A stretch of 64,000 nucleotides of DNA from Escherichia coli (lineage in GTDB: Bacteria; Pseudomonadota; Gammaproteobacteria; Enterobacterales; Enterobacteriaceae). Positions within the stretch are counted from its first letter, which is position 1, and each line of letters begins with the position of its first letter. The notes beneath the pieces were generated by a model. That model saw nothing but the letters and a program-made list of their open reading frames with translations. It was not told the origin of the DNA and made no database searches. Positions 410 through 44,788 of this stretch are shown one piece after another. The stretch lies in assembly GCF_003334315.1 (NCBI RefSeq), contig NZ_QOWR01000008.1. One strand, 5' to 3'. The position numbers and the translations under genes are program-made.

Positions 410-441
410 AAAAAAAGGCCCCTGTTGAAATTGCAGGGGCC
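410..441 (-). terminator. Rho-independent terminator downstream of cutC
   Basis: GC-rich hairpin ggcccctg/caggggcc at 417-441, followed on the minus strand by a U-run (plus-strand A-run 410-416). Confidence 0.7.
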
Positions 442-488
442 TGGTACGAGCAAGCATCATATTGGGCGACATGATGCAACGGTAAAAA

Positions 489-1244
<756 letters not shown>

Positions 1245-14691: not shown

Positions 14692-14718
14692 TTATCGGCA
14701 AGGAGGGGGGAAACTTTA
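14692..14718 (-). promoter_or_regulatory. Sigma-28 (FliA) class 3 promoter of the tar-tap-cheRBYZ operon
   Basis: Minus strand reads TAAAGTTT, 11-nt spacer, GCCGATAA: exact match to sigma-28 consensus, about 30 nt upstream of tar. Confidence 0.85.
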
Positions 14719-14748
14719 TTGCTGATGCCACCCGCCGCGAAATTGAAA

Positions 14749-14776
14749 TAAAAAACCCGATGCGCAGATCATCGGG
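14749..14776 (-). terminator. Rho-independent terminator downstream of cheW (end of motAB-cheAW operon)
   Basis: Hairpin cccgatg/catcggg (14756-14776) followed on the minus strand by a U-run. Confidence 0.7.
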
Positions 14777-14804
14777 TTCATTTCAATTGAGGAAATCGGG
14801 AGAA

Positions 14805-33009: not shown

Positions 33010-33096
33010 TGGTACCCGGAGCGGGACTTGAACCCGCACAGCGCGAACGCCGAGGGATTTTAAATCCCTTGTGTCTACCGATTCCACCATCCGGGC
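33010..33096 (-). tRNA. leuZ: tRNA-Leu (anticodon UAA)
   Basis: Minus strand reads GCCCGGATGGTGGAATCGGTAGACACAAGGGATTTAAAATCCC...GGGTACCA (87 nt) with encoded CCA. Confidence 0.95.
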
Positions 33097-33108
33097 TCGG
33101 GAAGAAAG

Positions 33109-33182
33109 TGGAGGCGCGTTCCGGAGTCGAACCGGACTAGACGGATTTGCAATCCGCTACATAACCGCTTTGTTAACGCGCC
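33109..33182 (-). tRNA. cysT: tRNA-Cys (anticodon GCA)
   Basis: Minus strand reads GGCGCGTTAACAAAGCGGTTATGTAGCGGATTGCAAATCCGTC...CTCCA (74 nt). Confidence 0.95.
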
Positions 33183-33236
33183 AAATTCTTCAGGCCTTTC
33201 AGCCAGACATCCGCTTGAGGCCGATGTCTTTTAAAC

Positions 33237-33312
<76 letters not shown>

Positions 33313-42263: not shown

Positions 42264-42983
42264 TTATAACTTACCCAGTTTAGTGCGTAACCGTTTAATA
42301 GCCTGGCTGTGTAACTGACTGACCCGCGATTCCCCGACCTCCAGCACTGCACCAATCTCTTTGAGATTCAGCTCTTCCTGGTAATAGAGGGTTAATACCA
42401 GTTTTTCGCGCTCCGGCAACGTTTCGATGGCTTCCATCACCCGCTGGCGCAGATTATTGTCCAGCAGTTGTTGTAGCGGGTTTTCTCGCTGATGATCATC
42501 AGTAACCAGTTCGATGCTATCGCCGTGCTCTTCGCGCCACTCATCGTAGGAGAAGAGCTGGCTGTTATTGGTGTCGAGCAACATTTGGCGATAATCGGCA
42601 ATATCGATCCCTAAACGTTCCGCTACCTCAGTTTCCGTGGCGTTGCGGCCAAGTTCCTGCTCCAGTTGCCCTATTGCCTGTGCCACTTCACGCGCGTTGC
42701 GTCGCACGCTGCGCGGCACCCAGTCACGGCTGCGAAGTTCATCCAGCATAGCGCCACGGATACGCTGCACTGCGTAAGTTGTAAATGCCGTTCCTTGTAG
42801 GGCGTCATAGCGTTCGACGGCATTAAGTAACCCAATGCCGCCCGCCTGTAGCAGATCGTCAAGTTCCACGCTCGCGGGCAGTCGAACCTGCAGGCGCAAT
42901 GCTTCGTGACGCACCAGCGGGACATAACGCTGCCACAGCGAGTGTTTATCCATTACACCTTCAGCGGTATAGAGTGAATTCAC
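42264..42983 (-). CDS. fliA: Flagellar sigma factor sigma-28 (FliA)
   Basis: 239-aa ORF with sigma-70 region 2 and 4 motifs; matches recalled FliA. Confidence 0.96.
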   Translation of the reverse strand: MNSLYTAEGVMDKHSLWQRYVPLVRHEALRLQVRLPASVELDDLLQAGGIGLLNAVERYDALQGTAFTTYAVQRIRGAMLDELRSRDWVPRSVRRNAREVAQAIGQLEQELGRNATETEVAERLGIDIADYRQMLLDTNNSQLFSYDEWREEHGDSIELVTDDHQRENPLQQLLDNNLRQRVMEAIETLPEREKLVLTLYYQEELNLKEIGAVLEVGESRVSQLHSQAIKRLRTKLGKL

Positions 42984-43016: not shown

Positions 43017-43102
43017 ATGATTATCCGTTTCTGCAGGGTTTTTAATCGGACGATTAGTGGGTGAAATGAGGGGTTATTTGGGGGTTACCGGTAAATTGCG
43101 GG

Positions 43103-43128
43103 CAGAAAAAACCCCGCCGTTGGCGGGG
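43103..43128 (-). terminator. Rho-independent terminator at the end of the fliC 3-prime UTR
   Basis: Minus strand hairpin ccccgcc-aacg-gcgggg followed by a U-run. Confidence 0.75.
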
Positions 43129-43149
43129 AAGCACGTTGCTGACAAATTA

Positions 43150-43260
43150 CCATTCATGTTGCCGGATGCGGCGTAACGCCTTATCCGGCCTACAAAAATC
43201 TGCAAATTCAATAAATTGCAATTCACCTTGTAGGCCTGATAAGCACAGCGCACCAGGCAA
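43150..43260. repeat. REP/BIME palindromic units within the fliC 3-prime UTR
   Basis: gccggatgcggcgtaacgccttatccggcctac and ggcctgataagcacagcgcaccaggc match REP consensus in inverted orientation. Confidence 0.75.
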
Positions 43261-43301
43261 TTTGGCGTTGCCGTCAGTCTCAGTTAATCAGGTTACGACG
43301 A

Positions 43302-44612
43302 TTAACCCTGCAGCAGAGACAGAACCTGCTGCGGTACCTGGTTGGCTTTTGCCAGTACGGAGTTACCGGCCTGCTGGATAATCTGCGCTTTCGACATGTT
43401 GGACACTTCGGTCGCATAGTCGGCGTCCTGAATACGGGACTGCGCTTCAGACAGGTTGGTAGTGGTGTTGTTCAGGTTGGTGACTGCGGAATCCAGACGG
43501 TTTTGCACCGCACCGAGGGAGGAGCGGAAAGTATCAACCTGTGCAATCGCTTTGTCTAAAAGTGCCAGTGGATCAGCAGAAGAAGCCCCTGAGAACTGTG
43601 CAGTCGGTTTTGCTGTTGATAATTCAACAACAACTTTATTATCTGTTGCTTTTGCCGCAGTATTATCATCAAGTGCCTTTGAAACCGTTGTAGCGTAGTT
43701 TTTACCTTGGAATGTTACATATCCCGCAGCCGAGCCGTCAGAGTCAGCGGCAACTTTAATCAGTTGATCTTTCTGAGTAGCCGCAGTCGTTAGTCCATTA
43801 TCGGTGTCTGTGTATTCGACATCGGCTTTATTCAACGTGACTTTGCCGTCTGTATGATTAATCGACGCGGAGTAGAAATCATTGCCGGATTGAACGACGA
43901 ACTGTGATGTAGCAGCCCCTTTCGCATCCAGAGTGTTGTGTAACGTCAGGCTAGAAACATCGACTGTTTTACCTGTCGCAGTAGTCAGATCTTTCGCAAC
44001 AGCAGTGAAATCAACACCAACAGGTTTTGCCCCGGCGGCACCGGTAATTTGAGTAATGGAATCACTAACGTTAAGTGACTGACCCGAAACGGAGAAACCG
44101 TTCAGTCCTAATGTAGAAGAGTCAATCTTCTGCAAATCAATGCTAATAGTCTGCCCATCATTCGCGCCAACCTGAATCTTCATCGAACCATCTTTCGCCA
44201 GCACATTCACGCCGTTGAACTGGGTCTGACCGGAAACGCGATCAATTTCATCCAGACGGGATTTGATTTCGTCCTGGATTGAAGACAGGTCAGAATCAGA
44301 GTTAGTCCCGGTCGTCGCCTGAACGGTCAACTCACGCACACGCTGCAAGTTGTTGTTGATTTCAGACAGCGCGCCTTCAGTGGTCTGCGCCAGAGAGATA
44401 CCGTCGTTGGCGTTACGTGCGGCCTGAGTCAGACCTTTGATGTTAGAGGTGAAGCGGTTAGCAATCGCCTGGCCCGCAGCGTCATCTTTAGCGCTGTTAA
44501 TGCGCAGACCAGAAGAGAGGCGCTCGATAGAAGTCGACAGCGCAGACTGGTTTTTGTTGATGTTGTTCTGAGTGATCAGCGAGAGGCTGTTGGTATTAAT
44601 GACTTGTGCCAT
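43302..44612 (-). CDS. fliC: Flagellin FliC (H antigen), 436 aa, non-K-12 central domain
   Basis: ORF 43302-44633; start moved to MAQVINTNSLSLITQNN; N and C termini conserved, central region divergent and shorter than the 498-aa K-12 protein. Confidence 0.95.
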   Translation of the reverse strand: MAQVINTNSLSLITQNNINKNQSALSTSIERLSSGLRINSAKDDAAGQAIANRFTSNIKGLTQAARNANDGISLAQTTEGALSEINNNLQRVRELTVQATTGTNSDSDLSSIQDEIKSRLDEIDRVSGQTQFNGVNVLAKDGSMKIQVGANDGQTISIDLQKIDSSTLGLNGFSVSGQSLNVSDSITQITGAAGAKPVGVDFTAVAKDLTTATGKTVDVSSLTLHNTLDAKGAATSQFVVQSGNDFYSASINHTDGKVTLNKADVEYTDTDNGLTTAATQKDQLIKVAADSDGSAAGYVTFQGKNYATTVSKALDDNTAAKATDNKVVVELSTAKPTAQFSGASSADPLALLDKAIAQVDTFRSSLGAVQNRLDSAVTNLNNTTTNLSEAQSRIQDADYATEVSNMSKAQIIQQAGNSVLAKANQVPQQVLSLLQG

Positions 44613-44688: not shown

Positions 44689-44715
44689 TTATCGTCTGGT
44701 CACTCACAACCTTTA
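44689..44715 (-). promoter_or_regulatory. Sigma-28 promoter of fliC
   Basis: Minus strand reads TAAAGGTT, 11-nt spacer, GACGATAA, about 75 nt upstream of fliC. Confidence 0.8.
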
Positions 44716-44788
44716 GAATTTTTTTCTAGCGGTCGAAATACTCCCCTTCCTCGTTGCTGTTCGTGCCATTAAGGCAAAAAATAAATCG

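Follow-up and report, generated by a model that had tools for sequence, protein, structure and literature searches.

The window analysed here is a stretch of 64,000 nucleotides of Escherichia coli DNA (contig NZ_QOWR01000008.1), in which the flagellin gene fliC is followed by fliA on the same strand. The fliC coding sequence was taken from the list of open reading frames (ORFs), with its ATG set by alignment to K-12 fliC. The encoded flagellin is 99.8% identical to that of strain 214-4 and 99.5% identical to the 436-aa flagellin of a genome labelled ST131, a match from which the window allele is probably H5, and it shares only 58% identity with the H48 flagellin of K-12. Upstream of the gene lies a promoter of the sigma-28 type, which we take to fit the consensus TAAA-N15-GCCGATAA, and both of its elements and their spacing are the same as in K-12 by alignment. 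Past the stop codon, the 3′ untranslated region (UTR) is composed of two single-copy segments, two REP units with a linker between them, and an intrinsic terminator, and the features are as follows.

44689..44715, minus strand: fliC promoter of the sigma-28 type, with TAAA at 44715-44712, a 15-nt spacer and GACGATAA at 44696-44689
44612..43302, minus strand: fliC coding sequence, 436 aa plus stop
43304-43302, minus strand: fliC stop codon, TAA
43298-43259, minus strand: single-copy 5′ segment of the putative FliX, 40 nt, containing CUGACGG at 43277-43271
43258-43230, minus strand: REP unit A (REP-A), GCCUGGUGCGCUGUGCUUAUCAGGCCUAC, fitting the REP pattern with two mismatches and forming an inverted-repeat arm
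43194-43229, no strand given: A/T-rich linker between the REP units, 36 nt, recognised from its sequence, its fold and a sub-threshold Rfam match
43193-43161, minus strand: REP unit B (REP-B), GUAGGCCGGAUAAGGCGUUACGCCGCAUCCGGC, inverted relative to REP-A, recognised from the inverted repeat and a partial, sub-gathering match to naRNA4
43160-43129, minus strand: single-copy 3′ segment, 32 nt, between REP-B and the terminator
43128-43106, minus strand: intrinsic terminator from a terminator scan, with stem CCCCGCCAACGGCGGGG at 43128-43112 and TTTTTT at 43111-43106
42983..42264, minus strand: fliA, downstream of fliC

A sequence-only reading of this DNA had described a gap of about 200 nt between the fliC stop codon and a terminator hairpin placed at 43103-43128, with an inverted pair of REP units at 43150-43260. 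Measured from the stop codon, the distance is 173 nt to the terminator stem and 196 nt to the end of the T-run; the span given for the hairpin covers the terminator, and the two REP units, at 43230-43258 and 43161-43193, lie within the bounds that had been proposed for them.

Some further observations concern the surroundings of the locus. In the fliD-fliC intergenic region (44716-44760, minus strand) 19 nt of the K-12 sequence (ACAAAAAATGGCTGTTTTT) are missing from the window, directly 5′ of the A-rich stretch in front of the -35 element of the fliC sigma-28 promoter, and the region further upstream of this gap aligns poorly with K-12. Elsewhere in the window, matches at the Rfam gathering level were obtained for the MicL sRNA (410-717, minus strand, 381.9 bits), the C0465 RNA (14708-14785, plus strand, 111.6 bits) and a cluster of three tRNAs (33013-33312, minus strand).

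Comparison with K-12 FliX

The small RNA FliX of K-12 was described by Melamed et al. (2023, eLife 12:RP87151, PMC10578931) as a sigma-28-dependent RNA that is processed from the fliC mRNA, its reads dropping after treatment with a 5′-phosphate-dependent exonuclease; this is the RNA from the fliC 3′ UTR to which the sequence-only reading had referred. FliX runs at about 200 nt and is accompanied by an Hfq-bound form of about 100 nt, FliX-S, with Hfq association seen by co-immunoprecipitation; FliX-S is stated to include ‘one of the REP sequences downstream of fliC’ (PMC10578931). Through its seed, FliX pairs with sites within the coding sequences of fliC, rplC, rpsS and rpsQ, all four of which are repressed, and it lowers flagellin mRNA, flagellin protein and flagella number (PMC10578931). 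Footprints on rpsS depend on the seed, FliX-S is more active than FliX in K-12, and a chromosomal seed mutant, fliX-M1, has mild phenotypes only (PMC10578931). In the K-12 RefSeq annotation the RNA appears as ‘small RNA FliX’, ncRNA fliX (b4827), at NC_000913 2001912-2002106, beginning 3 nt past the fliC stop codon.

The stretch 43298-43106 aligns end to end with this annotated sequence, and the window contains the following predicted counterparts.

43106..43298, minus strand: FliX ortholog, full length, 193 nt
43106..43209, minus strand: FliX-S ortholog, 104 nt
43127..43146, minus strand: seed region UUUGUCAGCAACGUGCUUCC, with the M1 triplet GCA at 43139-43137, the same as in K-12

Alignment to published FliX had been set beforehand as the check on the proposed FliX source, with a lack of similarity as the contrary outcome; 183 of 195 columns proved identical (93.8%), with 10 substitutions and two 1-nt gaps, and the candidate in the fliC 3′ UTR corresponds from end to end to K-12 fliX. 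The 5′ end at 43298 was set by the first base of the FliX cloning primer SM044 (TTGTAACCTGATTAACTGAGACTG; PMC10578931, supplement 3), and falls 3 nt past the fliC stop codon, as in K-12. That of FliX-S was taken from primer SM673 (GAATTTGCACATTTTTGTAGGCCGG), giving a predicted length that agrees with the published band of about 100 nt; each of the two primers has one mismatch to the window. The M1 mutation was read from primer SM644, which changes GCA to CGT relative to the wild type (PMC10578931, supplement 3). Between FliX nt 153 and the end of the terminator stem's 5′ arm (nt 179), the window and K-12 do not differ.

Both FliX sequences lie directly past the fliC stop codon and upstream of fliA on the same strand, and share the seed with its M1 triplet, the REP-linker-REP core, the terminator, the contexts of both 5′ ends and the sigma-28 promoter of fliC. 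The window differs from K-12 in its 436-aa fliC allele, in the substitutions, one of which is at FliX nt 2 and another 10 nt into FliX-S, in a REP-B loop that is 1 nt shorter, in a U-tract of U6 rather than U7, and in a patch just 5′ of the seed that reads GAAUGGUA in the window and AAAGCGCA in K-12. Judged from the sequence, these substitutions and indels, including those near both 5′ ends, could shift the efficiency of processing.

No FliX family or model is present in Rfam 15, and the assignment draws on the match to the RefSeq locus, the 93.8% identity, the primer sites and the conservation of seed, terminator and sigma-28 promoter, on account of which the region is very probably the FliX sRNA locus of a non-K-12 E. 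coli strain, orthologous to K-12 fliX. The predicted FliX-S ortholog keeps REP-B as its single REP unit. The sequence-only reading had also proposed that REP units bear on the processing of this UTR, a point already in print, since published FliX-S contains one REP (PMC10578931). Both FliX and the REP content of its UTR are thus already known, and the finding is a correct re-identification.

Some sRNAs from 3′ UTRs have internal promoters, UhpU being an example (PMC10578931), and FliX in this strain might by analogy be a primary transcript from a promoter of its own, inside or after fliC, instead of a processing product. We consider this very improbable, as a search of the minus strand between 42800 and 43500 found no sigma-70-like promoter, and the fall in K-12 FliX reads after 5′-phosphate-dependent exonuclease indicates processed 5′ ends (PMC10578931). 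Processing from the fliC mRNA is the route retained below.

REP units, predicted fold and proposed release of FliX-S

The REP 14-mer CTTATCMGGCCTAC has two exact copies in the 64-kb window, both within the fliC 3′ UTR, where 0.02 would be expected, and the pair is therefore more than a chance occurrence. The 98-nt block formed by REP-A, the linker and REP-B was found in all 5426 of the 5426 complete E. coli genomes, at at least 40 places per genome; this figure is a median, obtained from a word-11 search in which a place was counted if at least 80% of the block was covered, as megablast, which requires an exact word of 28 nt, strongly undercounts the copies. Repetition on this scale in every genome marks the block as a genuine dispersed mosaic element.

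An IHF-binding mosaic element termed BIME-1, also named RIB or RIP, was reportedly described by Gilson in 1991 and by Boccard and Prentki in 1993, and the block in the window is presumably of this kind, whose linker binds IHF. Shared with such elements are the inverted palindromic units around an A/T-rich linker of about 36 nt, a near-consensus IHF site, a position at the 3′ end of a transcription unit and a composite that is highly repeated in the genome. The candidate IHF site, ATTCAATAAATTG (43206-43218, plus strand), has one mismatch to the IHF consensus WATCAANNNNTTR, of which no exact match was found in the linker. The window element differs in being embedded in a regulatory RNA, within which its apical loop would be the processing site that frees the active short form.

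The only Rfam matches in the region were sub-threshold ones to two families: naRNA4, which is derived from REP325, over the first hairpin of REP-B (43141-43190, minus strand, 35.1 bits against a gathering threshold of 59.5), and ES036/CssrF over the linker (43196-43237, plus strand, 34.7 bits against 37.6). Identity with either was rejected, the matches being sub-threshold and both families themselves REP-derived. The two families look REP- or BIME-derived in general, and their matches elsewhere are likely to be repeat copies rather than specific sRNA genes. Stalling of ribosomes at the stop codon induced by a REP is said, in a study by Liang and colleagues from 2015, to need the REP within about 15 nt; this effect was rejected for fliC, as REP-A begins 43 nt past the stop.

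The 193-nt RNA folds with a predicted energy of -68.5 kcal/mol (z = -2.85), a value reached by 0 of 200 shuffled sequences, and K-12 FliX shows the same architecture (z = -3.91). In the predicted fold, REP-A pairs with REP-B through the linker to give one long imperfect hairpin in which the linker forms the apical stem-loop, and the 5′ end of FliX-S (nt 90, 43209) sits in a 10-nt A/U-rich apical loop. The terminator stem, with seven G-C pairs and a 3-nt loop, is present in every predicted fold, and together with the U-tail is presumed to be the Hfq-binding 3′ module. Between REP-B and the terminator, the predicted folds leave most of the seed stretch unpaired. According to the minimum free energy (MFE) structure and the pair table, the opening bases UUGUCAG of the seed region are base-paired in full-length FliX to CUGACGG of the 5′ segment (43277-43271). 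For FliX-S, REP-B is predicted to fold back on itself into a 5′-proximal hairpin. Averaged over the whole seed motif, the unpaired probability is 0.43 in FliX-S as compared with 0.52 in FliX, so that the motif is no more accessible in the short form, because a small alternative hairpin forms there.

Taken with the K-12 work, these features allow a pathway to be proposed. The fliC mRNA, as the parent transcript of FliX, would be transcribed by sigma-28 and end at the terminator, shortly before the fliA promoter region, as it functions in K-12. A cut just past the stop codon would yield FliX of about 200 nt, and a second cut FliX-S of about 100 nt, for which the apical loop of the REP-REP hairpin is a plausible endonuclease entry site, with RNase E assumed as the enzyme. 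As in K-12, both forms would bind Hfq, and the seed between REP-B and the terminator would pair with the coding regions of its targets. Loss of the 5′ half would break the pairing of UUGUCAG with CUGACGG seen in the MFE prediction, which could help to explain the stronger action of FliX-S, and REP-B would then refold on itself near the new 5′ end. The modelled folds weakly suggest that masking of the seed in full-length FliX contributes to the stronger effect of FliX-S. An exploratory duplex scan of the seed against fliC placed the best predicted site at about +381, with energies of -18.3 kcal/mol in K-12 and -16.2 kcal/mol in the window.

CpxQ and SroC are Hfq-dependent sRNAs derived from 3′ UTRs that are released by processing and have a terminator Hfq module with the seed just upstream. 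FliX differs from other sRNAs of this class in having its pairing sites within coding sequences and not at ribosome-binding sites, in feeding back on its own parent mRNA and in carrying a repeat element. It resembles FlgO, from flgL (PMC10578931), which is likewise cut from an mRNA 3′ end, uses the mRNA terminator as its Hfq module and has its seed just upstream of the terminator.

Long and short forms of the fliC 3′ UTR

The interval between fliC and fliA was matched in 5380 of the 5426 complete E. coli genomes, and in only 3503 was at least 80% of it covered. A 43-nt query for the single-copy 5′ segment of FliX (43256-43298) was found once per genome in 3510 of the 5426. The remaining genomes match from the terminator onward only, and in the four examples inspected the stop codon of fliC is separated from the same terminator by 18-20 unrelated nt, REP units and seed both being absent. 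The terminator is common to a long and a short form of the UTR, the latter occurring in three versions that were counted with junction-specific queries over the 5426 complete genomes.

S1: 780 genomes, including Z135-5 and the ST131 strain 4433 (349-aa flagellin WP_000079759.1)
S2: 225 genomes, including WL297 and the O7:K1 strain CE10
S3: 817 genomes, including ETEC H10407, O111:H8, O111:H2 and O155:H21

The long form and S1-S3 together account for 5332 of the 5380 genomes, the long form making up about 65% and the short forms (about 1820 genomes) about 34% of complete genomes, and this dimorphism of the UTR sequence is itself solid. No genome has the seed segment at more than two places, and at the threshold applied only 3069 genomes gave a match; these counts give no hint of a copy moved elsewhere in short-form strains. 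The long form is more than a short form with REP units inserted, because the 40-nt 5′ and 32-nt 3′ flanks of the REP block are also single-copy and specific to the long form. In sequence, the pattern looks like replacement of the whole UTR, bounded downstream by the conserved terminator.

Variation within the long form was assessed in an alignment of 11 sequences, among them the window, K-12, O157:H7, E2348/69 (O127:H6) and an ST131-labelled genome. The seed varies at two positions only, in 3 of the 11 sequences (GUUAGC in one and GCUC in two). The patch just 5′ of the seed (43148-43154, minus strand) exists as two haplotypes, that of the window also being found in E2348/69 and that of K-12 also in O157:H7, and in the predicted folds the two haplotypes differ in the register of their pairing with the 5′ segment. 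The loop of REP-B carries a 1-nt indel among long-form strains, and the U-tract has six or seven residues.

This indel bears on whether the stretch might instead encode a small protein, from either a 59-aa ORF at 43074-43253 (minus strand) or an 81-aa ORF at 43136-43381 (plus strand), both of which appear in the mechanically produced ORF list. Because the strain-variable indel would frameshift both, we do not regard them as genes; both also cross the REP units as well as the terminator, the one on the plus strand runs antisense to the 3′ end of fliC, and a third of genomes do not have the segment at all. A protein product is, on these grounds, scarcely credible.

More can be said for a passive REP-linker-REP insertion that acts at the DNA level, by binding IHF or gyrase, or stabilises the 3′ end of the mRNA, with no trans-acting RNA made here. 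The dispersal of the 98-nt block in at least 40 copies per genome, the candidate IHF site one mismatch from consensus, the lack of the whole segment in about a third of E. coli genomes and the mild phenotypes of chromosomal seed mutants (PMC10578931) would all be in keeping with it. The functional seed, however, lies outside the repeat, in single-copy sequence, and is almost invariant, and in K-12 the RNA binds Hfq and pairs with its targets through the seed (PMC10578931). We hold a purely passive element to be improbable; DNA-level and RNA roles are in any case not mutually exclusive, and a FliX locus containing a mosaic element remains the preferred reading.

In the examples examined, the form of the UTR tracks the fliC allele and not the background of the strain, which is also the outcome of the comparison of UTR architecture across fliC alleles that the sequence-only reading had proposed, one long and three short forms having been found. 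This is illustrated by two ST131-labelled genomes whose FliA proteins are the same, one having a 436-aa flagellin with the long UTR and the other a 349-aa flagellin with S1, and the 349-aa allele of H4-labelled ST131 genomes goes with the short form. An equation of S2 with H6 was considered and rejected, as E2348/69 (O127:H6) has the long form, with an intergenic region of 320 nt. Published statements on the conservation of FliX are confined to its presence ‘among some of the Enterobacteriaceae’ and its detection in EPEC (PMC10578931), and the latter fits the long form in E2348/69.

Two observations on single sequences may be added. Among species-representative genomes, an exact 20-mer over the seed-terminator junction had its sole match in an E. 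coli fliC-fliA fragment within a metagenome-assembled genome labelled Collinsella; this 3.9-kb contig (JAIJJM010000281.1, ‘MAG: Collinsella sp.’) contains, from E. coli, the 3′ end of fliC, FliX and the region upstream of fliA, and is almost certainly a mis-binned E. coli fragment. In E. coli 2013C_3653, which has S3, only TTT separates the terminator stem from CAATTTACC; relative to the other forms, 10 nt with the remainder of the T-run and the spacer are deleted, a change that, from its sequence, might weaken termination and allow read-through from fliC into fliAZ.

The re-identification of FliX matters little in itself, the RNA being published and annotated in RefSeq and its REP content in print, although FliX and its seed are here kept intact beside a very different flagellin allele. 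A literature search for long and short forms of the fliC 3′ UTR in E. coli found no paper, and the link between the fliC allele and the possession of FliX is the one result of this work that might be new. On balance, and by a modest margin over the contrary, we favour the interpretation that FliX is an accessory trait travelling with certain fliC alleles and not a core sRNA of E. coli, with short-form lineages lacking FliX feedback. If this is true, those lineages would be without the negative-feedback arm that links flagellin and ribosomal-protein mRNAs; alternatively, they would carry a different 3′ UTR RNA of about 45 nt in place of FliX. Natural pairs of long and short UTRs on similar backgrounds, such as the ST131-labelled genomes, would then offer ready-made material with which to test the contribution of FliX. 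Should the presence of FliX depend on the fliC allele, conclusions drawn in K-12 on sRNA control of flagella and ribosomal proteins would not be transferable to major pathogenic lineages.
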